From Leucoraja erinacea (lineage: Eukaryota): a DNA stretch of 64,000 bases. Below the pieces are notes generated by a model that ran no database searches, was not told where the DNA came from, and saw nothing but the letters and a program-made list of their open reading frames with translations. This document shows, one piece after another, positions 7,775-34,600 of this stretch; position 1 is the stretch's first letter, and the number at the start of each line of letters is the position of its first letter. The stretch lies in assembly GCF_028641065.1 (NCBI RefSeq), contig NC_073396.1:8804001-8868000 (forward strand), in the 5' to 3' direction. A program made the position numbers and the translations under genes.

Positions 7775-7886
7775 TTAACACACACGCTTGTATGTATATA
7801 TGTAGGCTTTACAGTTTGGACAAGTATGCATTACATCCTTCAGGTCATCTATCAAGCATGGGATTAAGCAGCAGCCCAAATCGCAC
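7775..7886 (-). CDS. CDIP1: CDIP1 last coding exon
   Basis: [36 protein letters not shown]; ttttgctccag acceptor. Confidence 0.95.
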
Positions 7887-10800
7887 CTGGAGCAAAAGAA
7901 AATAAGTTTTGTAGAAGTTTACCATGACCATATATCAGTTGCAACACATCAAATGGCAAAGAACTTTGCGGGTGAAATGGAAAATCAAATATTTATTTTT
8001 TGCTCCCGCAAGAATGGAATAACTAATGATTAAGTGGTAAAACGTGCTGTGGAGAGTTTCAATCAAAGTAATATTTATCAGCAATTAATCGTAGTGTCTC
8101 ACAGCGCAGGAAAGCATTGTTTCTGCGTTATTGCTTTCAAACGAGAAATTGTCCCAATACTGGAGTTATACAAGTTACAGGAAGAAACTTTGCAGCTCCA
8201 GGAGCAAATAGTAAAATTGATCCAGAGACTATTACTGACTGGGTGGAATGAGTGAACAAAGAGGAATTGGATTATATCAATTTCCTAACTGCAGGATTCC
8301 CTCATTCCTACATGGAAGAGTTATTTTAATATGGTAATAAAATAGATCAGACAGACAAGACAGCCATTCCTTTTCTCCCGAGAGGTTGACAGGAGGGCAT
8401 CTGAAAATAACAGTTTGCTTTTACAATCACAAACAAACAATCCTTCCATTGACTAATTACACTTCACGCTGGCTCAGTAACGCCACCAGCATAATGCCAC
8501 CAGTCTCATCCCGGTCACTCCCTCTTCTCCCCTCTCCCACCAGGCAAGAGTACAGAAGTGTGAAAACGCCCATCTCCAGATTCATGAACAATTTCTTCCT
8601 AGCTGTTATCGGGGAACGGAATCACCCCATCAAAAGCTAGAGAGCAGTCTTGAGCTACTATCTACCTCACTGGAGACAATTGGACTATCTTTAATTGGCC
8701 TTTACCTTGCACTAAATGTTATTCCCTTTATCATGTATCTGTACTCGATTGTAATTATGTACAGTCTTTTCACTGACTGGTTAGCAAGCACCAAAAGCTT
8801 TTTCTCTGTACTTCGGTACATGTGACAATAAACTAAACTTAAATGAGAACACTTATAAATAAGAATTGAATACAGTCAATGAGAGTTACTTACCCCATAA
8901 AACAGCAGAAGAGACAGAATAAAGTATTGAGCAAGCCTAGTTCATAAGTGATCTTGGTTGTGATGGCCTGCTGGCAATGAGGGCACACAGTCTGCACAGG
9001 TGCAGCTTGAAACATCTCCCCCTGCAGTACGGTCACTGTTGTTGCTGCACCAGGGGGAACTATAACAGTTGCTGTTTGTCCACTGAGAGGGGGATAGTGC
9101 CCAGGAGGGGGCGCATAGGGACCTGGGGGTACAAAGTGACCCGGAGGTGGGAAATGCCCTGCAGCTGGGTAGTAACCTGTTAAAAGGGAAAATAAGACAA
9201 AATGTATTAATAGACAATAGGTGCAGTAGGCCATTCGGCCCTTCGAGCCAGCACCTCCATTCAATGTGATCATGGCTGATCATCCCCAATCAGTACTCCG
9301 TTCCTGCCTTCTCCACATATCCCCTGACTCCGCTACCTTTAAGAGCCCTATCTAGCTCTCTTGAAAGTATCCAGAGAACCGGCCTCCACCCCCTCTGAGC
9401 CAGAGAATTCCACAGACTCACAACTCTCTGTGTGAAATGTGTTTCCTCGTCTCCGTTCTAAATGGCTTACCACTAATTCTTAAACTGTGGCCCTAGTTCT
9501 AGACTCCCCCAACATCGGGAACATGTTTCCTGCCTCTACTGTGTCCAAACCCTTAATAATCTTATATGTTTCAATAAGATCCCGTCTCATCCTTCTAAAC
9601 TCCAGCGTATACAAGCCCAGCCGCTGCATTCTCTCAGCATATGACAGTCCCACCATCCCGGGAATTAACCTTGTGAACCTACGTTGCGCTCCCTCAATAG
9701 CAAGAACGTCCATCCTCAAATTAGGGGACCAAAACTGCACACAATACTTCAGGTAATAGTATGAAGAAATCAATAGCTTTGTCTTTTAAACTTTTTAGTT
9801 CAGAGATACTGCATGGAAACAGGCCCTTCGGCCCACCAAGTCCAAGCTGACAATCGATCACCCATTCACACTAGTTCCACGTTATCCCATTTTCTCCTCC
9901 ATTCCCTACACGACAGGGGGCAATTTACAAAGGCTAATTAACCTACAAACACACACGTCTTTGAGCTGTGGGAAGAAACCAGAGCACCTGGAGGAAACAG
10001 GAAGAACGTGCAAACTCCACACAGACAGCATCCCCAGTCATGGTTGAACCAGGTGCTGTGAGGCATTTGTTCCATCAGCTGTGCCCCTGTGCCACCCAAA
10101 TAATGGTTGAGGCAATTAAAATTGTATGGAAAAAACACAAATAATCCTGCATTACATAAGATGCTGCATCCACAAGGTTTAGCCACTTATGGGGTACTTG
10201 CAGTGTTGGAAGAGTCATGGACATTGTAAACCCTGGAGTGTTATGTAATGTTCTGGTCACATTACATGCTATAGCAGGAGGATGGGGTAGTGCAGAGGTG
10301 TTGTAGTTGTCCCAGAGCTACAGCAACCCAGGTTCAATCCTGACCTCTAATGCTATGTGCTTGGGGTGGAAGATTGCAACCTTCACGTGGTCTGCCCTGT
10401 TTCGACTAATGCAATCAACTCGACGTGCACAAACGGAAGATCAAATAGAACAAGTTGTCCGACAACTTTAAGCTGTGCACGCCACACAAAAGAAGAAGAA
10501 GATGATATGTGCTAATGTGGCACATTCTTCAGGTGCTCCCATTTCCTTTCCCATCCCAAAGATGAGCTGGTTCATAGATTAAATAGGTCCCCCACAATGG
10601 ACTACTGGCAGAATGAGGGGAGTTTTAATGGATGAGAGAGTGAATAGGTTACAACGAAGTAAAAGAGGAGGAATTTAGAGAGGTGGCAGAGGCTTGGCCC
10701 GATGCCCCCTTCATATGTTGTAAGGAAATATAACGGTAGGGTGCATGGATTTACAAGGATTTTACTGGAATTGAATATCAGCTTGGAGAAAAGAGTTCTA

Positions 10801-13800
10801 AGCCGTGGTGATTTCTTTCCAAATTTTTTTAAGTTGCTTGGAAGAATGGTCACATTTCCTTCTGAGAGATTAAGAACCTGTAATTGCTGGCAGTTTTGGA
10901 CAGGGTTCAGACTGACAAACTAACTCCCCTTCTCCCCTCCCCCCCCCCTGCACAATCTTTGTGCATCCCCAATCCTGGACTTTCCACTCGTCACTTTAAT
11001 TTCATGTATCTTGTTGTGTTTTATGACTGTTTGCAGACCAATTTCCCTCCTGGGATAAATAAAGTTATATTGGATCGTATCGTTGTGAAGCCAAGCTATT
11101 TACATGCTATATTAAGGGGACCAAATGCGTTATGTTAAGAAGTTTGCAGATGATGCAAAACTTGGTGGGATTACGAGTAAAGGGCCTGTTCCACTTGGTG
11201 ATTTTTTTTCGGCGACTGACGGCATCATTGACTGATGTATCAGGTCACCGAAAAAGTTGCGGCGTGACAACGTATTGACGCACAGTGTTTCCTCAAGTGT
11301 CACAACTTTTTTTTTGTCGCCGCTGGATTTTGAAATGTTCAAAATCTTTTGACGACCCTGATATCCAGCAGTCACCGAAAAAAATCGCCATGTGGGACTG
11401 GCCCTTAAAGGGGCTCCGAGGTCGATAAACAGGTTAAGTGGAATGGGCAAGAACATGGCAGGTGAAAATAAAGTGAGATCACTAGGTGTGTATAGCAGAA
11501 AAGTGACTGAGTGATTGGGAACAAAGAGTCATCAGAATGGCTCCTGGGATGGTGTTTGCCATGGAATAGTTGGGCGGCACAGTGACGCAGTGATACGAGT
11601 TGCTGCCTTACAGTGCAGGTTCGATACTGACAACGGGTGTTGGCTGGACGTTCTCCCCGTGACCGTGTGGGCTTCCTCCCGCACTCCAAAGACGTACAGG
11701 TTGTAGGTTGATTGGCTTCGGTAAAATTGTAAATTGTCCCTAGTGTGTAGGATCGTGTTAGTGAATGGGGTGATCGTTGGTCAGCGCGGACTCGGTGGGC
11801 CGAAGGGCCTGTTTCTGCAATCTATTTCAAAGGCTAAAGTAAAGTATAAAGTGTTCAGAATAATGAGATGATCTAATTGAAACCTCCTGAATTCTCTTGG
11901 GATCAGCAGATTGGATGCAGAAAGAATGCTTTCCTTGGCTAGATTCTTGAACGCGAAGAGTCTCACAAATAATGGGAGAGGCAATATACGATTAAGATGA
12001 TGGGAGAAGAATGGCTTCAAGCAGAGAAACATGGAATTCACTGTCTTTTAAGAGCTATTAAAAGCAGATTCGTTGATTTCCCTACTATGTAGAAATGTTA
12101 AGTTCTTTGGGTATATAGGGCAAGAAAAGTAAACCATGGTAGATCAGCCATGATCTTGGATGGTTGTGTGGTGTTGAGGGAAGCTTTGATAGGCTAGGCT
12201 TGTTTCTGCTGGAGTTTATAAAAGTGTGGGGCGAGTCTGATGAAACATAGATCCTGACGGGTCTTTACAGACTAGATGCTGAAGGGATGTTTTTCTCTTG
12301 TGGGATTATCTAGACTGAGTCATTCTTTAAAAATAAAGGATCATGCATTTAAGACATACAAAGTAAAAAAAATACCCAGGAAAAGAGAGTTTCAGGGACT
12401 TTCAATGCACAGCGCAGTGGAATGCAAGTCTTCAAATATCTTGACGGGATTGGTAGATAGATTTTTGATAAGGGGGTGATAGATTACCAAGGGTCAACGA
12501 GAATGCAGAGCTGAATTTCCAATCATTGAGTCATAAAGTGTGGAATCAGGCCCTTCAACCCATCTTGCCAACACCAACCAACATGTCCCATCTGCACTAG
12601 CCCCATCTGCCTGCATTTGGCCCGTATTCCTCTAAACCTGTCGTATCCATGCACGGGTCTAATTGCTGCTTAAACTTTGTGATAGTCCCTGCCTCGACTA
12701 CATTCTCCGGCAGCTCGTTCCACACTTTACATGAAAAAGTTCTCTCAGATTCCTACAAAATCTTTCCCCCTTCACCTTAAACCCATGGCATCTGGTTCTC
12801 GATTCCCACCCTCTGGGCAAGAGACACTGCGCGTCCAGCTTATCTATACCGCTCATGATTTTTAACACCTCTACAAGATCACCCCTCATCCTCCTTGCAC
12901 TCCATGGAGTATAGTCCCAGCCTGTCTCAACCTCTGCCTATAACGCAGATCAGCTGTGATTTGGCTGAGCAAGCTGAAGGGCCAAGTGATCTGTGCCTAA
13001 ATCTTATTTTTGTGCTATGATGGAAGAGGCTGAAGGACCACACAGATTACACCTGCTCCCAATCTGCACGTTCTTAACAACAGATAACACATCAGCTCTG
13101 GTTCTGTTGCCGCACCAACCACAAAATTTGACCTATTTCCAGATTTATGTTTATTTGAAACTTAGTTCAGTGAAATAACATAAAAGGAAGATTACTTGGC
13201 AACATGGTAGATGACTGAATTATCATAAAGGTCAGATGTATACATCAAGAAGATGAAGATTCTCAATAGTAATTACACAATATTTTTTCACCCCGTTACT
13301 CTCAATGTTCATCATTAAGCCTGGAGATTTACTCAAAATAGTTTGTGATGAGGTGTTACAGTTTTGCAGACTGACTGAAAAAGATTAGTCATAAAATAAA
13401 TAAATTTGATACAAGATACTTCCAATCTCCAAATGTTTCTCAGACAACAAACTACTTCCTGAAAGATAACCCGAAAAGATCTATACCATTGATTATATTT
13501 GATAATAAACAATACGTGCAGGAGTAGGCCATTCGAGCCAGCACCGCCATTCAATGTGATCATGGCTGATCATCCACAATCAGTACCCCGTTCGTGCCTT
13601 CTCCCCATATCCCCTGACTCTGCTATTTTTAAGAGCCCTATCTAGCTCTCTCTTGAAAGTATCCAGAGAACTGGCCTCCACCGCCCTCTGAGGCAGAGAA
13701 TTCCACAGACTCACAACTCTCTGTGTGAAAAAGTGTTTCCTCATCTCCTAAATGGCTTATCTCTTATTCTTAAACTGTGGCCCCTGGTTCTGGACTCCCC

Positions 13801-16800
13801 CAACATCGGGAACATGTTTCCTGCCTCTAGCATGTCAATACTCTTAATAATCTTATTAACTCACTCTTAATAATTTAAGAGGGAGTTAGATGTGGCCCTT
13901 GTGGCTAAAGGGGTCAGGGGGTATGGAGATAAGGCAGGCACAGGATACTGTTGGATGATCAGCCATGATCATATTGAATGGCGGTGCAGGCTTGAAGGGC
14001 CGAATGGCCTACTCCTGCACCTAATTTCTATGTTTCTATATGTTTCAATAAGATCCCCTCTCATCCTAAATTCCAGAGTATACAAGCCCAGCTGCTCCAT
14101 TCTATCAACATATGACAGTCCCGCCATCCTGGGAATTAACCTTGTGAACCTACGCTGCATTCCCTCAATAGCAAGAATGTCCTTCCTCAAATTTGGAGAC
14201 CAAAACTGCTTTATTTGGGATGAAATTGTAGAATGTGTAATGTGTTGTCTAATGGTGTGGATAAATAATATGGGGAAAAATAACCTCAAATGTGGGAAGG
14301 AAACCATAAGTGGTACAACTAGATTTCTCCTCAAAAGGGCTGGTCTCTGATTTACCATTCTTTGATTGCACACAACAAAATTCAAGTGAAATTTACTAAT
14401 GTTTCTCCGTCATGAAATAATCTACCCATTACTACATTTTATGACAGCACAAAACTAAGTTTAGATTTTACCGTACTTGTTCAAAGTGTGAATTCTACAA
14501 TGTCATCCCAATTTTTGGAGTCCAGTTCCATTCCTAGCATCAGAGCAGAGATCCCAGTGCTTGCAAGAAGTACAATTGATCCTATTAATGAAGCCTTTGC
14601 TCCCTTCGTCTATGTCAAAAGACATGCACTGGACATTGTACCAGATCATTTTATGTTATCCATTCAGGGGCAAAAAGAAAAAGGGCATTAAAATAAAAAT
14701 TGCTGGAAGTTACTTGTTTATTAATATTTTTTAATCTATTAATCTGCTAATGGAAAATCAAATAAAGCAGCCATTTCCTAAACATTCTAACAAAACTATG
14801 GCAGAGCAAACTCATTCCTAGCATACATCAATTGATCTTCACCTCACCACAGAATGTTTAATTATGGTGGAAATCACTTACAAAAAAATTCAGTGCTGTT
14901 AATAAATTCCATAATCGCATCAACGATAGTTACCATGTGGTGGCATTGGCATACCACCTTCTGCAGGTGTATGAAGTGGTATAAATCCTGGTTGTGGCGT
15001 TAGCTCATACGGAGGTGGTCCAACCTCTGGTGGGATAAAATATCCTTGAGGTTGAATGGTGGTAGGAGGAGCAGTAGGAGGCAACATATACCCTGCAGAA
15101 ACTAAACAAATCTGCATTGTAAATTACTGTAATGTAAAAATCAACAAATTGTCAATCACAAATTCTTTATCTAATGTCCAAATCTCTTACAGTATTTACT
15201 GTAAGACAGTTCATTTTGAAGCCATCAATAAAATACTACCTATATTATTTTAGGGCAGATCTTATATCTTTGTGTTGCTCCAATTTGCCATACTCTGAGA
15301 ACGATTTCTGTTCAACATATGGATAAGCAGTTGGAATAAACACTGATGCAAGTGAATCTCTTCGTGAGCCCTGCCTGAAATGTTGTCTTTATCTTTGGTA
15401 TAGGAAGAAGTGACCCGACCCGAAACATCACCTATTCATTTTCTCCAGAGTTGCTGCCTGACCCACCAAGTTATTTTGCATCTATATTCAACCTGAAATA
15501 CTATTGCACATATTCAAACTCAGGATCTGCCTTTCCACCCAGAACAAGGTATTAAAGAGATAAATGGAACAATATATTTACTTATTTACAATAAAATAAA
15601 GATTGGTTGTTTAATCTATAATAAAATAAAGATACATCAAAATGGTAAAATACAGATTAGGAAACCAGTATAAAATGTTCAGAACAGTTACATCCATTTG
15701 AAAATAAACTTTCACTTCTAACTTCAACTTCTGCAATGATCACTTTCAGTTCCTTTAGGCTGTGGGCCGAGCATCAAAAATGTGTCTAGAAATATGATTT
15801 TGTGACCCAAGTCACCAAACTACATGAAATTTTCACATATTGTGTAAAAATTTTTATATAAATCACCCCTGAAACTCGATATGAAGAAGACTTGCACATT
15901 TTAATTAAATTAGAGAAAAACCGGAAAAATGTCGGGAATTTTTTAGTCCAATCAAAGCACTTTTAACATTGAGTTGTCTGCCAGTTGGCCAATCACGCGC
16001 TTTGTTTCAGGCTAGCACACAAAATGGCTGAGGGGGCTTCACAGATGCCTGTTTTACTGGAGATTCCGATTTGTTGTTCTGTGGAATAAATGTCGTGGAA
16101 ACTTGCAGCGGGTTAATTGTATTTAGTGGGAAAAGCATTAAAAAGGCTGAAGAAAGTGCTGCGGTGGATTAAAGTGCAAGAAAGCCTTCAAAGTCCCTGC
16201 TGATGTGCTGGAACACAAAGAAGGCCCCCATGAATCAACTCTAACTGAAAGGTAAGACTAAAGTCTGAATTTTTGAAAATCTATCTGTATGGACTTTAAT
16301 TAATTTAATTGCACCCTTTTATAATGTGAATAATAACATTTATTCCACATATTTATTCACATTATAAAAGGGTGCAATTAAATTAATTAAAGTCCATACA
16401 GATAAATTTTCATAAATTCAGACTTTAGTCTTACCTTTCAGTTACAATATGTACAATATAGTTACATATTTTACAATATGTAAAAATTTCATGTAGTTTG
16501 GTGACTTGGGTCACAAAACTGCATAATAAAGCTCCTCGACCCACAGCAAGATATTTAATTATATTGTTTTTTGTATGCCAGTAGAAGAGTCTAATTTCAT
16601 TACACTGTTAGTCAGGATACATTTTTTTTTTAAGAAGAGACCCAACCGGAAACGTCAGATCCATTTTCTCCAGAGATGCTGCCTGACCCGCTGAGTTACT
16701 CCAGCATTTTGTCCACATATTTGATATAAAGCAGCACCTGCAGTTCCTTTACATTACATATTGGATTTGTACCTGTTTGTGCAGATTGTCCTCCCTTCTC

Positions 16801-16857
16801 TTCAAGCAGTGGAGCAGAAGGCCCCCCTGGGTATGGAGGAGGTGGTTCTTCTGACAT
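7775..16857 (-). CDS. CDIP1: Cell death-inducing p53-target protein 1 (LITAF family), complement(join(7775..7886,8894..9176,14934..15092,16773..16857)), 212 aa
   Basis: N-terminus [21 protein letters not shown], a Pro-rich region with PPPY motifs, and a C-terminal LITAF domain (CPHC...hydrophobic segment...HTCPNC...YKRVC*). Exons 85+159+283+112=639 nt with consistent phases. Confidence 0.95.
8894..9176 (-). CDS. CDIP1: CDIP1 coding exon 3
   Basis: [13 protein letters not shown]...[47 protein letters not shown]; donor GTAAGT. Confidence 0.95.
9203..9752 (-). mobile_element. CR1 LINE 3' fragment
   Basis: [11 protein letters not shown]...RRFTRLIPG...[11 protein letters not shown]2 tail plus the shared 3' UTR GAAGGGCCGAATGGCCTAC. 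Confidence 0.85.
9793..10097 (-). mobile_element. HE1-like V-SINE
   Basis: Reverse-complement copy. Confidence 0.78.
10363..10416 (+). ncRNA. Minimal HDV-like (CPEB3-type) self-cleaving ribozyme fold
   Basis: P1 GGGGTGG/CTGCCCT with G1-U wobble; P2 GATTGCA/TGCAATC; P3 ACC/GGT; L3 TTCACGT; no real P4; J4/2 CTAA. Confidence 0.75.
10363..10501 (+). mobile_element. Short non-autonomous non-LTR retroelement with 5' HDV-like ribozyme and (GAA)n tail
   Basis: Flanked by ATG(C/A)TATGTGCT (10350-10361 / 10502-10513); tail AAAAGAAGAAGAAG; interrupts a decayed V-SINE. Confidence 0.7.
11181..11405. mobile_element. PIF/Harbinger-like MITE
   Basis: TIRs AGGGCCTGTTCCAC / GTGGGACTGGCCCT with TAA on both sides; sits in a decayed CR1 RT fragment ([10 protein letters not shown]). 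Confidence 0.75.
11571..11846 (+). mobile_element. HE1-like V-SINE
   Basis: Same family, with internal deletions. Confidence 0.78.
13515..14210. mobile_element. Nested CR1 fragments: a plus-strand 3' end (~13873-14040) inside a minus-strand copy
   Basis: The minus copy breaks at ...CTTAATAATCTTAT and resumes at ATGTTTCAATAAG after the inserted plus-strand tail. Confidence 0.75.
14934..15092 (-). CDS. CDIP1: CDIP1 coding exon 2
   Basis: [53 protein letters not shown]; ttctgcag acceptor, GTAACT donor. Confidence 0.92.
15759..16547. mobile_element. Non-autonomous TIR element of unassigned superfamily with internal 92-bp hairpin
   Basis: Ends GCTGTGGGCCGAG / CTCGACCCACAGC; ~36-bp subterminal inverted repeat TTTGTGACCCAAGTCACCAAACTACATGAAATTTT. 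Confidence 0.65.
16773..16857 (-). CDS. CDIP1: CDIP1 first coding exon
   Basis: [28 protein letters not shown]; acceptor just upstream (exon starts 16863); donor GTACAA. Confidence 0.93.
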
Positions 16858-16999
16858 TGTCCCCTGCAGATGATTAAAATCAAAATCAGAACTCCAAAAT
16901 CATGCAACTTCAAATGGAAGTTCAGTCAATACCCAAGAGGCCCTTCAAAACAAAGTATATGTTGGTCCCTGGAAGAGACAATGCTGTCATTCCCATTAC

Positions 17000-25590: not shown

Positions 25591-28175
25591 AGGTAGTCAC
25601 ACCTGCCTGTGTTTGACCCATATCCCTCCAAACCTGCCCTATTCAAGTACCTGTCTAAATGCTTCTTAAACAGATTTTAAGAAGGATATAGGCATCACTG
25701 GCAAGGACAACATTTATTGTCCTTCCCTGCTTCAAAGCCATCTCAGTGGGGCATTTCCGAGTCAACTGTAAATCAGGTTCTGTAAGGACAGTAGATTGCT
25801 TTGCCTGAAAGATATTAGTGAACAAGAAGAGCATTAATAAGATTCATCACTGATACTAGAGTTTTATTCTTGTTTTATTTAATTGCTTTGATTTACATAC
25901 CTTGGAAGCTTTCTGATCTACCTAGTTTGGCCTACATGTGACTACACACACGCTGGCCCACATGCTGCCTTGATGCTAAGGACAGTCAGTCAGTCTTATC
26001 TTGTCTCTGGACATCAACTCCATTGATCACGATTAGACCAAGGCTGAAAACGTAAGTTATTGACGCCTGAATTACAGACCTGCCAGAGACAGGTTTCATC
26101 ATTGTGACACAGGACACCATACTTGTAGGTGGATTGTCATGTCCTTGTGGTATACAAGGACAGAGATTGTTCATTGGCTGTCTCACCTTCAGCTGGACAA
26201 ATGCAGGCAGGACATGCATCTAAATGCGCAACAAATGGCAAAGCAAAACAGCCAAGGTTTTTCCGAAGATAAACACAAAATGTTGGAGTAACTCAGCGGG
26301 ACCGGCAGCATCTCTGGGGAGAACGAATGGGTGACGTTTCAGATCGAGACTCTTCTTCAGAGTCTGAACAAGGGTCTCGACCTGAAACATCATCCATTCC
26401 TTCTCTCCAGACATACTGCCTGTCCCACTGAGTTACTCCGGCATTTTGTGTGTATCTTCAGTGTAAACCAGCAACTGTAGTTCCTTCCTGCACAGCCATG
26501 GTTTTTTAGCTATTGTAAGTATTAAGGATGAGATCATGAGCGTTTGGAAAATAAATTTTATATATTTTTGGAAAAGTAAGCATAATATGGATTGGAAGAC
26601 CATTTTACAAATGCTACACGGTGAACAGATGTATAAGGTATAAAGAGTGGATGAGCTCAGGGTGAGCTCAGTTTAGGATAGAGGTGGGGTAAGATTCAGA
26701 ATGCCAGGAAGCTGGCACTCCCAGTCTGAAGAAGGGTCTCGACCCGAAAGATCACCTATTCCGTATTTCCGGAGTTGCTGCCTGACCCGATGAGTTACTG
26801 CAGTCTTTTGTGCCTATCTTCAGATAAACTCTTTGATAAGAAGACCCAGCGAGATAATATCTACTCCAAAGGCAAAAAAACTCCTAAAACCGAAGCTGGC
26901 TGGGGTGGTGTTCTGTTGAGGTGGTGAACCCAAAGAATCAGCATATCTGTGATGTGTATTTCATCAAACATGCCCACACCATATTGGGAGTCCAGGTGGG
27001 GCAAAGGTGTGGGGAGAGAAGGATTGAATGTTTCTCTCCCCATTGATGCTGCTGCATCTGCTAGAACTGAATGCATCCAACATTTTCTTTTTGTGCTTTC
27101 TGTTTTGGATTTGCAGCATCCGCAGTTTATTTTTGTCAAGGAAACACAAGCGTTGCCAAAAGATATGGAAGGGTGTTTTGGCATATTCAAATGCATGCTT
27201 TAAGCCCTCCGAAATAGGCGCAAAAAGCTGCAGTAACTCATCGGGTCAGGCAGCAACTCCGGAGAAAAAAAAATAGGTGACGTTTCATGTCGAGACCCTT
27301 CTTCAGACTGGGAGTCAGGGGAGAGGAAAACGAGAGATATGATAAGGTACAAAGAACAAATGAATGAAGTATACAAAAGGACAAAGCCATCAACGATGAT
27401 CAAGGAAAGGTGGAGCCCACAATGGTCCTTTGTTGGCTGTGGAGAAGGTGATAATGAGTGATACAAAAAGTGAAACTCGGCAGGACAACAGTGAGACTAG
27501 GGTGGGGGAGAATTTTTTTCCTCATATGAAACACTTCATCTTGGAAGCAGATGCAGGTGTAGAGGGAGGAATTGGGAGTAAGGGACAGAGTTTTTGCAGG
27601 AAGCAGGGTGGGAAAAATTGTAGTATAGAAAGTCGTGGGAGTCAGTGGGTTTATACTAGAAGTCAGTAGATAGTCCATCTCCTGGGATGGAAAAGGATGA
27701 GATGCAGTGTTCCTGTTGAATACATTAAGCAGCAAAACCCACCACCCTGTAGTTTCACTGTTTGTGTCACTTTCTCCTCAGCCTACACTGGACCATGATG
27801 GGCGTCCATCTTTTCTTGCTCACCATTGCTGGCTCTTATCTTATTTGTCCCTAAAAAAAGTAAAAGCAAAACATTTGCGTTGTGTTACTGCGTGGGGACA
27901 ATGCAGCCCGTGACATAAAGCCACCAAGCCACAATGGCAACTGAGGTGACATAGGAGCAACCCGAATAAAGGCGTTTCCATGCCGCGGTGGAGGTATCTT
28001 AGCAACAGAGGTGTAACGGGCCAGGGGTGGGGAGGTTGTTTGGCGAGTTGGTGTCAATGGAAGACGCCCGGGACGCATGAGGTTCCATTTGCAGCCAGGT
28101 CGTCCTGAACTGGGTTGCAATTCCGCGGCGGCTTCACACAAGGCGCTACTTATGTCCCAATAGACACGATAAGAG

Positions 28176-28673
28176 ATGGCACACACTTTCACGTTGAACG
28201 AGCTGGTCAACCTGTCCATCGGCACCCCCGAGGTGGGTGTGTGCAACTTCAACGCGTTGCATGCGCTCTTGCACGGTATCCTGGAGCACCTGAACCTACA
28301 GGACGCGCAGAAGACGGTGGAAGAAGTTGAGGTGGAGTTCATCAAACCCAAGAGGTCCAAGGACAAGGTCCCCGAGGATGAAGCGCCAGCTTCGGAAGAA
28401 ACCGCGGAGAAGGAGCCGAAGGAAAGCGGGAAATCGGTCTCGCTCTTCCACCAGCTGGAGGAAAAAGTGGCCAAGCTGCAGAACGCCATGGAGGTGTTGG
28501 GGCAGCTGCCCAGTGTCCCGGAGCTCATGGCCCGCAGCCAGGCGGAGACCAGCAGTCGCAAGTACTCGGTCAGCAGCAGCATCGGCGTGGGCGGAGCAGG
28601 GCCAGTGAAGGAGATGTGGCAACTCATGCAGGTCAAAAAAAAGGTGGAAGCCAACGAGGATGGAGTCCACAAG
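28176..28673 (+). CDS. C16orf96: C16orf96-like exon 1
   Basis: MAHTFTLNELVNLSIGTPEVG...VKEMWQLMQVKKKVEANEDGVHK; donor GTGCGG; CpG-rich. Confidence 0.9.
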
Positions 28674-31600
28674 GTGCGGCATTGGGTTTTAACTTTCCTT
28701 AGCTGTTATAGATACTTATCTATATATAAGTATTATATAAGTATATATACATAAGTATCTTTAGCATTATATATATATATATAAAGATTTTATATATAAA
28801 TCTTTATCTAAAGACTTTAAGACTTTTGCCTTCCATCACAGTGAGGAGGTGCCTGGTGAACTCCCTGTGGTGGATGTTAAATTTGTGTTTATTGTGTGTT
28901 TTGTTATTTGTATTACATGTATGACTGCAAGGCACTGCAAGGCAAACATTTTGTTCAGACCCACTTTGACATACCTTGACATATATATATATATATAAGC
29001 CTAGGTAAGTACTTGTAGTTCTCATCTCTCTCTTCCAAACCAGTACTGAGGCAGGGTTTTCCTCTACCAAGATCTCTCTTGGAGATTACTTCTGTTTTAT
29101 TTGCATTGTTTTTAGATGACTATTCCCAATAGAAACATAGAAACATGGAAAATAGGTGCAGGAGTAGGCCATTCGGCCCTTCGAGCCTGCGCCGCCATTC
29201 AATATGATCATGGCTGATCATCCAACTCGGTATCCCGTTCCTGCCTTCTCTCCATACCCCCTGATCCCTTTAGCCACAAGGGCCACATCTAACTCCCTCT
29301 TAAATATAGCCAATGAACTGGCCTCAACTACCTTCTGCGGCAGAGAATTCCAGAGATTCACCACTCTCTGTGTGAAAAAGGTTTTCCTCATCTCGGTACT
29401 AAAAGATTTCCCCCTTAATCTACCTTTACACTATACCATTCCCTGAGTTGGTGTTGGACAGGATAAAGGACATGGTACGACATTGTCACGGTAAATACTG
29501 CTGTCAGTTTGACTTTCTTTGCATTAAGCATGGTCTGCATACCAAGGGCACAAGGACGAATTGTGAGTATTTAAACAGGCAAATCAAAATGTGATGGGAA
29601 CTCTGACTTGCTGGGGGAAAGCAGCTGAACATTCAAGTTAAGATAGAGTTTAGGGATTGCTTCCATTCCCGCCTTCTACATAGTCATTGTCATAAGTTCC
29701 TACGCGATATGAGCAGAATTAGGCCATTCAGCCCATGAAGTCTACTCTGCCATTCAACCATGGCTGATCTATCTTTCCCTCTTAACCCCATTCTTCTGCC
29801 TTCATCCCATAATCCTTAACACCCAAACTGTCATTTTCTGCAAACTTTTTGAGGCTTTGGTTACAATTCTTCAGTAGTCCACACAACTCTTGGTAATTTC
29901 ACAGTTCCACTATTAGGTAGCTTACACACCCAATGGTATGATGGTCCTTACGGGTTTGTTTAGGGTTTTAACCATATCCACCTTTTTTAGCACTAAACTT
30001 TTCCATGTTTAAAACATGTTGCCTCTTCTGCTTCCCTACTGAATACTGAGGACCATCAAGCTTCAAGTGACTCCTTTTTGAGCATGGTCTCTCATTATTT
30101 GCACCAGGCACTTTTTCTGGCCTTATTAATCATTATTTCACGCATTGCATGATAATTTAAACGTTTGAAGTGATTTATTTTGTAGATTCCATCATACAAT
30201 TCTGTAACATTTCTAATTATCTCTCTTTATCATTGTGCACCCATTTCTATCTTTGAATGTACACAAAAATGCTAGAGAAACTCAGCGGGTGCAGCAGCAT
30301 CTATGGAGCGAAGGGACCAGCATTCTGGCAGGCAGGTTTGCCACAGCTACACGGGTGGCTTTAAACTGAATAAGGGGGGTGGGGTGTTGAATGGGACAGT
30401 GGAGGATGGAGTTAAAGGGAAAGGGTTTCTTAAATGTGTGAGCGTAGAGACCGAAGGGTGTAAAATGAGGGTAGAAGAAATAGGTAGCAAGGTGAAAAGT
30501 AAAAGTGGCAGGCAGGCAAAACCAGGGCAAAAATCAAAAAGGGCCACTTTTCAACATAATTGTATAAGGGGTAAGTGTTGTAAAAACAAGCCTGAAGGCT
30601 TTGTGTCTCAATGCAAGGAGCATTCGTAATAAGGTGGATGAGTTGAATGTGCAGATAGCTATTAATGACTATGATATAGTTGGGATCACGGAGACATGGC
30701 TCCAGGGTGGCCAAGGCTGGGAGCTGAACATCCAGGGATATTCAATATTCAGGAGGGATAGACAGAAAGGAAAAGGAGGTGGGGTAGCGTTACTGATTAG
30801 AGAGGGGATTAATGCAATGGAAAGGAAGGACATTAGTTTGGAGGATGTGGAATCGGCATGGGTAGAGCTGCAAAACACTAAGGGGCAGAAAACGCTGGTG
30901 GGTGTTGTGTACAGGCCACCTAACAGTAGTAGTGAAGTTGGAGATGGTATCAAACAGGAAATTAGAAATGCGTGCGACAAAGGCAAAACGGTTATAATGG
31001 GTGACTTCAATCTACATATAGATTGGGTGAATCAAATTGGCAGGGGTGCTGAGGAAGAGGATTTCTTGGAATGTATGCGGGATAGTTATCTAAATCAACA
31101 TGTAGAGGAACCAACGAGAGAGCAGGCTATTTTAGACTGGGTATTGAGTAATGAGGAAGGGTTAGTTAGCAATCTTGTTGTACGTGCCCCCTTGGGCAAG
31201 AGTGACCATAATATGGTTGAGTTCTTCATTAGGATGGAGAGTGACATTGTTAATTCAGAAACAATGGTTCTGAACTTAAAGAAAGGTAACTTTGAGGGTA
31301 TGAGACGTGAATTGGCCAAGATTGACTGGCAATTAATTCTAAAAGGGTTGACGGTGGATATGCAATGGAAGACATTTAAAGACTGCATGGATGAACTACA
31401 AAAATTGTTCATCCCAGTTTGGCAAAAGAATAAATCAGGGAAGGTTGTACATCCATGGATAACAAAGGAAATCAGGGATAGTATCAAAGCGAAGGATGAT
31501 GCGTACAAATTAGCCAGAAAAAGCAGCATACCGGAGGACTGGGAGAAATTCAAAGACCAGCAGAGGAGGACAAAGGGCTTAATTAGGAAAGGAAAAATAG

Positions 31601-34600
31601 ATTATGAAAGAAAACTGGCAGGGAACATAAAAACTGACTGCAAAAGTTTTTATAGATATGTGAAAAGAAAGAGATTAGTTAAAACAAATGTAGGTCCCTT
31701 GCAGTCAGAAACAGGTGAGTTGATCATGGGGAACAAGGATATGGCGGACCAATTGAATAACTACTTTGGTTCCGTCTTCACTAAGGAAGACATAAATAAT
31801 TTGCCGGAAATAGCAGGGGACCGCGGATCAAAGGAGTTGGAGGAATTGAGTGAAATCCAGGTTAGCCGGGAAGTGGTGTTGGGTAAATTGAATGGATTAA
31901 AGGCAGATAAATCCCCAGGGCCAGATAGGCTGCATCCCAGAGTACTTAAGGAAGTAGCTCCAGAAATAGTAGATGCATTAGTAATAATCTTTCAAAACTC
32001 TTTAGATTCTGTAGTAGTTCCTGAAGATTGGCGGGTAGCAAACGTAACCCCACTTTTTAAGAAGGGAGTGAGAGATTGGGGAATTACAGACCAGTTAGTC
32101 TAACATCGGTAGTGGGGAAACTGCTAGAGTCAGTTATTAAAGATGGGATAGCAGCACATGTGGAAAGTGGTGAAATCATTGGACAAAGTCAGCATGGATT
32201 TACGAAAGGTAAATCATGTCTGACGAATCTTATAGAATTTTTCGAGGATGTAACTAGTAGCGTGGATAGGGGAGAACCAGTGGATGTGGTGTATCTGGAC
32301 TTCCAGAAGGCTTTCGACAAGGTCCCACATAAGAGATTAGTATACAAACTTAAAGCACAAGGCATTGGGGGTTCAGTATTGAAGTGGATAGAGAACTGGC
32401 TGGCAAACAGGAAGCAAAGAGTAGGAGTAAACGGGTCCTTTTCACAATGGCAGGCAGTGACTAGTGGGGTACCCCAAGGCTCAGTACTGCGACCCCAGCT
32501 ATTTACAATGTATATTAATGATTTGGATGAGGGAATTGAAGGCAATATCTCCAAGTTTGCGGATGACACTAAGCTGGGGGGCAGTGTTAGCTGTGAGGAG
32601 GATGCTAGGAGACTGCAGGGTGACTTGGATAGGCTGGGTGAGTGGGCAAATGTTTGGCAGATGCAGTATAATGTGGATAAATGTGAGGTTATCCATTTTG
32701 GTGGCAAAAACGGGAAAGCAGACTATTATCTAAATGGTGGCCGATTGGGAAAGGGGGAGATGCAGCGAGACCTGGATGTCATGGTACACCAGTCATTGAA
32801 GGTAGGCATGCAGGTGCAGCAGGCAGTAAAGAAAGCGAATGGTATGTTAGCTTTCATTGCAAAAGGATTTGAGTATAGGAGCAGAGAGGTTCTACTGCAG
32901 TTGTACAGGGTCTTGGTGAGACCACACCTGGAGTATTGCGTACAGTTTTGGTCTCCAAATCTGCTGAAGGACATTATTGCCATAGAGGGAGTGCAGAGAC
33001 GGTTCACCAGACTGATTCCTGGGATGTCAGGACTGTCTTATGAAGAAAGACTGGATAGACTTGGTTTATACTCTAGAATTTAGAAGATTGAGAGGGGATC
33101 TTATAGAAACTTACAAAATTCTTAAGGGGTTGGACAGGCTAGATGCAGGAAGATTGTTCCCGATGTTAGGGAAGTCCAGGACAAGGGGTCACAGCTTAAG
33201 GATAAAGGGGAAATCCTTTAAAACCGAGATGAGAAGAACTTTTTTTTCACACAGAGAGTGGTGAATCTCTGGAACTCTCTGCCACAGAGGGTAGTTGAGG
33301 CCAGTTCATTGGCTATATTTAAGAGGGAGTTAGATGTGGCCCTTGTGGCTAAGGGGATCAGGGGGTATGGAGAGAAGGCAGGTACGGGATACTGAGTTGG
33401 ATGATCAGCCATGATCATATTGATTGGCGGTGCAGGCTCGAAGGGCCGAATGGCCTACTCCTGCACCTAATTTCTATGTTTCTATGAAATGGGCAACGTT
33501 TCAGGCCGAAACCCTTCTTCAGATCTTGGTATCCAGCTCCCCTGGATTATTCTAGTCCACCCTCGTAACATCTGTAAACATATCTCTGAGGAAATTGGTT
33601 CCTCACTTCTGCAATGACACTTCTTTATTGATCAATGTGACATTGGTCTTTAGTATTTTTAGCTTGTAGTAACAAAAATAAACGTATTGCTATCGAACTG
33701 ACCTTTATGTTTGAAATCACTACTGGGGAAAAATAGTTGTTATTGCACGACTGAAATGCTCAAGCCCTGAATCTCCTTTCCCTGTTTGTCACGGTTGCCA
33801 TAATAACGCACTTGTCTATAATATAATGTTTCTTGGGATTGTGACTATTGTGTTATAGCAGATAGAAGATAATCGTCACTGTTGCTGTTAATCTGCAATC
33901 AAAGTAATCGCATGTTTCCATTTTTTCAGGCGATGGGATCACTACAAGAATTGATGAATGCGATTAATCTCTTGACTAGCAACCATGAGAATATGAAGAA
34001 GGACCTTGAGAAAGTAAGTTGTTAGTTATTCCAGGAATTTAATATGCTGATATTTACCAATCGGGGCTAATCTTCATAATAATTTTGTTTTTAGTTTTAG
34101 AGATGCAGCGCGGGAACGGGCCCTTCGGCTGACAGAGCCCGCGCCGACCGGCTATCACTGTACATTATCTCTACCCTACACACACAAGGGACAATTCTTT
34201 ATTCATACACCAAGCCAATTAACCTACAAACCTGGACGTCTTTGGAGTGTGGGAGGAAAATGAAGATCTCGGGGAAAACCCATGCGGTCACGGGGAGAAC
34301 GTACAAACTCCATGCAGACAGCACCCGTTATGTGGATCAAATCCGGAACCCCGGTGCTGCAAGTGGTGTAAGGGAACAACTCTCCACTGCACCACCGTGC
34401 CACCTTCTTCTTCAATAATCTTCTTCTCTACCTTACTGTACCGTTAAGATACAAATTATGCATTTTACTTTTCTACTGGTTATACAAATGTCATATTTTC
34501 TGTGCATCAATTACCTGTTGAAATCTATCTTTGCTCCATAAAGACTCAAACTCTTCGCTGTCCTTCCCTCTTCCGTGCAATTGAGATTTTGGAGCAGTTC

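Follow-up and report, generated by a model that had tools for sequence, protein, structure and literature searches.

A high-copy, non-coding vertebrate retroposon whose 5' end carries a predicted P4-less HDV-like ribozyme

The 64-kb stretch of DNA analyzed (the window) included a minus-strand LITAF-domain gene, whose exon at 9279-8893 gave a zf-LITAF-like Pfam match (E 5e-8) and which we take to be CDIP1. A short inserted element, termed E1, was located in an intron of this gene in antisense orientation and interrupted an older tRNA-headed SINE, presumably a V-SINE: the E1 flanks matched adjacent and colinear parts of one such SINE at six other places. The first-pass annotation had described a retroposon of 139 bp with a 12-bp target-site duplication (TSD) containing one mismatch, which split an old V-SINE antisense in a CDIP1 intron. 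The element, its direct repeats, its intronic antisense position and the interrupted SINE were all recovered, while the names of the SINE and the gene stay at the level of our assumption. An extra T at 10362 falls outside of the TSD. The features of E1 and of a copy of a sister family, E2, which carries internal deletions, are listed in Table 1. The window also contained a nearly complete CR1-type ORF2 at 30568-33083 (+), split into two frames of 511 and 340 aa, and an exon-like frame of 193 aa without Pfam match at 28173-28754 (+), belonging to a second gene.

Table 1. Position of E1, its predicted parts, its surroundings and the E2 copy in the window
Feature	Position	Strand	Evidence or remark
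Host LITAF-domain gene, CDIP1-like	7790..16860	-	coding exons near 16857, 9279-8893, 7837
Older tRNA-headed SINE interrupted by E1	10283..10586	+	65-80% to other copies
5' target-site duplication, 12 bp	10350..10361	+	direct repeat, 92% to 10502-10513
Inserted E1 element, 140 bp (extra T at 10362, then 139 bp between G1 and the end of the tail)	10362..10501	+	
Predicted minimal HDV-like ribozyme, 54 nt	10363..10416	+	descriptor, weak Rfam match, cross-family alignment
P1, 5' strand (partner 10392-10398; G1.U36 next to the predicted cleavage point)	10363..10369	+	sequence; covariation in three families
P2, 5' strand (partner 10410-10416)	10372..10378	+	7 Watson-Crick pairs
P3 (3 bp) and 7-nt L3 with U20, C22, G25	10379..10391	+	
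G37/U38 of P1.1, P4 remnant, C44, J4/2	10399..10409	+	
Five-base P4 remnant	10401-10405	+	
Predicted catalytic C44	10406	+	putative role, by analogy to HDV/CPEB3 (parts of PMC13635239, PMC4836649)
3' stem-loop	10424..10481	+	outer stem 10424-10431/10474-10481, inner hairpin 10452-10468
(AAG)4 tail	10490..10501	+	sequence
3' target-site duplication	10502..10513	+	direct repeat
E2 copy, ~200-bp retroposon, full HDV-like head including P4	59448..59630	-	descriptor

Comparison of four sequencing runs at the E1 site, X3 (organism B), X7 (organism C), X9 (organism D) and X11 (organism E), revealed an empty orthologous site in X11, where a single 773-nt contig joined 10000-10348 to 10501-10900. This contig was shorter by 152 bases, i.e. 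the 140 bases of the element and the 12 bases of one TSD, and contained a single TSD copy, as the first-pass annotation had anticipated. The insertion was present in X3 (contig covering 10441-10900) and likely in organisms C and D, whose contigs entered E1 from both flanks by less than 31 bases and did not firmly bridge it. The family itself was found in all four runs, with loose ends piling up at 10362-10363.

A 25-nt pattern from the E1 5' end with T at position 5 had 4,411 exact matches in the 2.19-Gb genome, and two 3' variants had 712 and 2,354. The first 30 listed loci for each 3' pattern (60 of 3,066, selected by the 3' end) were sampled, giving 30 copies of a young and 30 of an old subfamily. 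Since the 5' pattern was exactly preserved only in 17/30 young and 8/30 old copies of this sample, the copy number was roughly estimated at about 10^4. The 5' boundary was sharp: 50 of the 60 3'-selected copies started at G1 (+/-1), six at positions 3-12 and four were truncated. TSDs were detected in 37/60 copies with a median length of 12-12.5 bp. The non-CpG divergence from the subfamily majority was 3.1% in the young (n=28) and 5.0% in the old (n=22) subfamily. The copies were dispersed and had TSDs, a simple-repeat tail and an empty orthologous site, i.e. the attributes of a non-LTR retroposon. Retrozymes were rejected, the E1 copies being monomeric with TSDs and variable flanks, and Rfam giving no hammerhead match in the window.

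The two subfamilies differed at two of the 54 head positions (8 and 45, both unpaired), and by six substitutions and a 2-nt indel within positions 55-110. The window copy belongs to the young subfamily and deviated from its majority by three substitutions in the first 110 nt (10393, 10461 and 10471). C44 was retained in 56 of the 57 copies covering it, while every core element was intact in 22/60 copies (~37%), as expected for neutral decay. Some copies (10/57 covered) had A at position 32, converting the U5.G32 wobble into U-A, which may be either a subfamily trait or CpG decay.

An HDV-like descriptor scan of the whole window produced two matches, 10363-10416 (+) and 59630-59563 (-), and a second descriptor likewise gave two, as against none in 20 dinucleotide shuffles (both strands). 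Direct inspection of 10363-10416 agreed with the first-pass annotation in letters, coordinates and helices. The pairing potential is that of a nested double pseudoknot, with P1, P2, P3 and P1.1 in the right order: P1 of seven pairs including the wobbles G1.U36, U5.G32 and G6.U31, J1/2 of 2 nt, P2 of seven Watson-Crick pairs, P3 of three pairs, L3 of 7 nt, G37/U38, five nucleotides in place of P4 and finally C44. As those five, in both subfamilies alike, can form at most one pair, the ~54-nt fold is P4-less, as had been proposed. The candidate catalytic C stands first in J4/2, and both U20.G25 and the position-1 pair are present in the sequence. The numbering of E1 coincides with that of CPEB3 at G1, U20, U21, C22, A23, G25, U26, U36, G37 and U38, as given in the cited portion of PMC4836649, in line with the CPEB3-like L3 claimed before.

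Rfam gave no gathering-level match over the whole window, and its RF02682 model matched exactly 10363-10416 with E 8.5 and 14.2 bits (gathering 44); because Rfam models are sequence-specific, the missing gathering-level match is weak evidence. In an alignment of eight gap-free heads from E1, E2 and the LINE family RTE-A (RTE-B and RTE-D were omitted, since their J1/2 length shifts the P1 register), 95.5% of the cells paired compared to 45-53% in slid controls. All seven P1 pairs and P1.1 (C22-G37 versus G22-C37) changed on both sides, while the outer P3 pair failed in the three RTE-A rows; the eight sequences, related to each other, come from three families and do not represent independent events. 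Several features counted against a ribozyme. The pseudoknot-free minimum free energy was unremarkable (z 0.39), and the catalytic base could be sequestered in a competing UUCG hairpin of two pairs, closed by G37-C44. Furthermore, the J1/2 of E1 has 2 nt, and Agam-2-1 deletion constructs with a J1/2 of 0-1 nt showed little or no cleavage (PMC4908430). A non-canonical second P1.1 pair, on the other hand, is compatible with fast cleavage (PMC13635239, in part).

The suggestion that P1 had suffered CpG decay was correct for one of its positions. At 10393 (position 31), C was present in 48/57 sampled copies and in ~90% of E1 copies in the four runs, so that G6.U31 is a decay particular to the window copy, weakening P1 from -11.3 kcal/mol in the master to -8.4, with all pairs still possible. 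At position 5, in contrast, T was found in 52/53 copies and C never; the master P1 thus contains the G1.U36 and U5.G32 wobbles, and a CpG-restored P1 as the family master was rejected, the C version of the 25-nt pattern having 98 exact genome matches versus 4,411 for T.

The earlier claim that the two retroposons of the window are unrelated in sequence was too strong: 26/38 head positions are shared between E1 and E2, their termini are of the same type, and the terminus of the old E1 subfamily is identical to that of E2 at 15/16 positions including the tail. The genome contained 787 E2 candidates, and a strict match recognized the head in 20/30 loci. When this core was sought in combination with a longer P4, the matches listed (100 of 194) were E1 variants and E2. 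The middle part of E2 may be a remnant of a LINE ORF start, presumably of a Vingi-like ORF, and the terminus common to E1 and E2 is, as we assume, similar to Vingi 3' ends.

Taken together, E1 is a high-copy, non-coding retroposon of ~140 bp, which, in our opinion, a predicted P4-less ribozyme likely releases and a LINE likely copies in trans. According to this scheme, sense-oriented copies would be transcribed by read-through from the host, and the RNA would cleave itself 5' of 10363 (predicted point between 10362 and 10363), with C44 serving as the putative general acid and Mg2+ at U20.G25. The uncapped RNA might be protected by the ribozyme fold. An APE-type LINE protein would then recognize the 3' stem-loop and the (AAG)n tail and copy the RNA in trans by target-primed reverse transcription. 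The stem-loop, with a folding z-score of -1.3 in the window copy and -2.8 in an old-subfamily copy, is likely the signal recognized by the helper reverse transcriptase. The window copy itself is probably an inert insertion; being antisense to the host gene, it would not cut the host pre-mRNA.

Transcription from an own promoter has to be considered, because an internal promoter, too, can give an RNA of 139 nt its sharp 5' end. The head might be a catalytically dead or slow relic acting through such a promoter, like Pr77 of L1Tc/NARTc, and/or through a cap-like fold, in which case the 5' end would be the transcription start. Pr77 is both promoter and ribozyme (parts of PMC3383444 and PMC4035085), insertion of R2 is made more efficient by a stable HDV fold (PMC11331408, in part), and the very short J1/2 together with the missing P4 may slow down cleavage. 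However, C44, U20.G25, G1.U36 and P1.1 were kept in both subfamilies while the remainder drifted, and minimal P4-less ribozymes are active according to the cited sections of PMC10879173 and a preprint. We regard a relic as rather unlikely.

Much less probable still is an ordinary Pol III SINE whose head, tRNA-derived but degenerate, mimics the pseudoknot, and which was mobilized by young (AAG)n-tailed LINEs of the Nimb/I type. It would account for the initial G run, the lack of a T4 run and the high copy number, and the Nimb families have intact members with (AAG)n ends and 13-16 bp TSDs. Yet neither an A or B box nor a head of tRNA, 5S or 7SL type was found in E1, and no tRNA was called in the window; the lack of boxes, together with a T5 run in E2, counts against Pol III transcription. 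The shuffled sequences yielded no descriptor matches, the head covaries with LINE ribozyme heads, and the Nimb 5' ends are ragged and without such a fold, with no significant 3' similarity to E1. A sigma-70 promoter scan gave nothing, its consensus being irrelevant to a vertebrate.

The build of E1, a LINE-type ribozyme head without any ORF, is that of a bipartite non-autonomous LINE derivative. Ribozyme-headed elements of this kind include SIDEs (PMC3414825), NARTc/RIME/SIDER (PMC4035085), Vingi-1_EE derivatives and RTE-N (PMC5786205, PMC4494074), on which the reviews agree as far as the cited parts go (PMC6765202, PMC7761336, PMC13708176). The first-pass annotation had overlooked this bipartite logic, as well as the occurrence of the same loop at the 5' end of a Vingi LINE. 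Similarly to SIDE, NARTc, Vingi-N and RTE-N, E1 is short and non-coding, with the ribozyme fold at nucleotide 1, a 3' recognition region, a simple-repeat tail, TSDs and no Pol III promoter. In contrast to them, its predicted ribozyme is without P4, its copies, an estimated 10^4 or so, are dispersed in a vertebrate genome, and it has no matching parent among six RTE and three Nimb families. The literature search found no report of the E1 family, with PMC5499810 describing other chondrichthyan SINEs; Repbase and Dfam were outside of its scope, and the family may already be catalogued.

Minimal P4-less ribozymes are described from gut phages, many of them adjoining tRNAs: the minimal drz-Mtgn and the theta ribozymes (PMC10879173, in part). 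Screening of human, mouse and protist genomes gave, in the same part of that source, minimal ribozyme matches only in bacteria. The E1 head has in common with both the absence of a P4 helix, the short J1/2 and the catalytic C first in J4/2, but is the head of a eukaryotic retroposon without an adjacent tRNA. With no tRNA in the window and variable E1 flanks, a theta ribozyme identity was discarded.

The CPEB3 ribozyme and the 5' end of the LINE Vingi-2_Gav are close to E1 in the G-rich P1 with G1.U36, the same L3, the single C22-G37 pair with U21/U38 and the intronic location, as far as the cited text shows. Both, however, differ from E1 in their P2/P3 sequences and in possessing a P4 hairpin. 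CPEB3, moreover, exists as one conserved copy on the sense strand, while E1 in the window is a single copy, in antisense, of a repeat that is young. The printed 5' end of Vingi-2_Gav (PMC5786205 supplement) includes a G-rich P1, the L3 of E1, C22-G37, G37-U38 and CGAA. As printed in the same supplement, its positions 2-74 resemble the CPEB3 ribozyme, which suggests, judging from sequence likeness, a Vingi origin of the latter; a literature search for Vingi together with CPEB3 found no paper.

To recover possible helpers, a PF20049 profile and an RTE endonuclease query were applied, resulting in six RTE families, and a PF14529 profile (150 of 16,995 candidates scored), resulting in Nimb and L2/CR1-like families; six RTE and three Nimb/I families in total were recovered. 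The 3' part of E1 had no match in these nine. Only one of 36 3' alignments to the nine LINE ends reached p<0.05, none of the 60 E1 and 30 E2 copies (3'-selected) ran into LINE sequence, and blastn of E1 against 40 further RTE loci hit only an inserted E1 copy. No recognizable Vingi family was detected when 12 reference LINEs were compared by tblastn with loci totaling 1.19 Mb. A resemblance of the Nimb-B 3' UTR motif to E1 was dismissed as not significant (p 0.25-0.9); the corresponding pattern found only Nimb-B and deleted E1 copies among the matches listed (100 of 480).

The Nimb/I LINEs were young, had an intact ORF2 of ~1,200 aa, began raggedly at the 5' end and carried an (AAG)n tail. In Nimb-B, part of the 5' UTR was complementary to the 3' UTR of the same LINE. 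Full-length Nimb copies were younger than E1 (divergence 0.8-2.1% in a biased sample). An automatic rule detected TSDs in 5/33 RTE-A and 5/13 Nimb-B copies, and TSD length did not discriminate RTE-A from Nimb. A helper of the Nimb/I type appears improbable.

The full-length RTE LINEs of this genome had a sharp 5' boundary at an HDV-like fold whose register is that of E1, as is also the register of the E2 head. The P1, P2, P3 and L3 of these RTE heads correspond to those of E1, and the stretch 10372-10392 (P2-P3-L3) was identical to the RTE-B head at 19/21 positions, to RTE-A at 17, to RTE-F at 16 and to E2 at 14, with the bases before the catalytic C matching as well. RTE-A shows an A.A mismatch in P3. 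E1 could be an RTE derivative or a hybrid of an RTE head with another tail, in which P4 was deleted and P1/P1.1 flipped, mobilized by the (AAG)n-tailed RTE-A; hybrids have a precedent in the R2/R1 SIDEs (PMC3414825, in part). RTE-A is the only one of the six RTE families with an (AAG)n tail, present also in all three Nimb families, and its non-CpG divergence of 3.9-5.2% overlaps that of both E1 subfamilies. RTE-B gives rise to many internally deleted bipartite derivatives of several lengths in this genome, with a sharp start at the HDV-like fold, a long P4 region and an (AAGT)n end. Nevertheless, the heads of RTE-A, -B, -D and -F all have a pyrimidine-first P1 and the flipped G22-C37 pair, a P4 region of ~100 nt and different 3' ends, the P2-P3 block is conserved among RTE heads and partly by function, E1 has no 3' homology to RTE-A/B, and clear TSDs were seen in few RTE-A copies. 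An RTE or hybrid origin of E1 is the main rival, though the less likely one, and RTE as its helper a possibility of similarly limited weight.

Bipartite elements are reported only from RTE, Ingi, Vingi and R2, to the extent covered by the cited part of PMC5786205. All lines considered, we lean somewhat towards an LINE of the Ingi/Vingi type as the helper. The reasons are the G-rich P1, C22-G37 and L3 at the Vingi-2_Gav 5' end, together with the Vingi likeness that we assume for E2 and the common terminus.

The general mechanism, ribozyme release combined with mobilization in trans, is already known; the variation seen here is the lack of P4 in the HDV-like fold of a vertebrate retroposon with a high copy number. 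A bolder interpretation, which we put forward as speculative, is that the head is an active 54-nt P4-less ribozyme, which would rank with the smallest found in nature and be the first of its kind in a eukaryote, and that it drives a vertebrate retroposon devoid of a promoter, whose matching parent LINE either was lost before it or never existed; part of the same doubtful proposition is an RTE-type core set in a Vingi/CPEB3-type frame. If true, thousands of intact E1 copies would be potential transcript-cutting sites, and E1 would be a living model for the seeding of CPEB3-like intronic ribozymes. The rise of a family so headed to thousands of copies would demonstrate that a vertebrate cell can do without P4. 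The subfamilies and the fraction of copies with an intact core provide a natural mutational library in which activity, exaptation and any bias of orientation within genes can be tested, and E1 defines a minimal template of ~140 nt for LINE-driven insertion, which is relevant to RNA-templated gene insertion.
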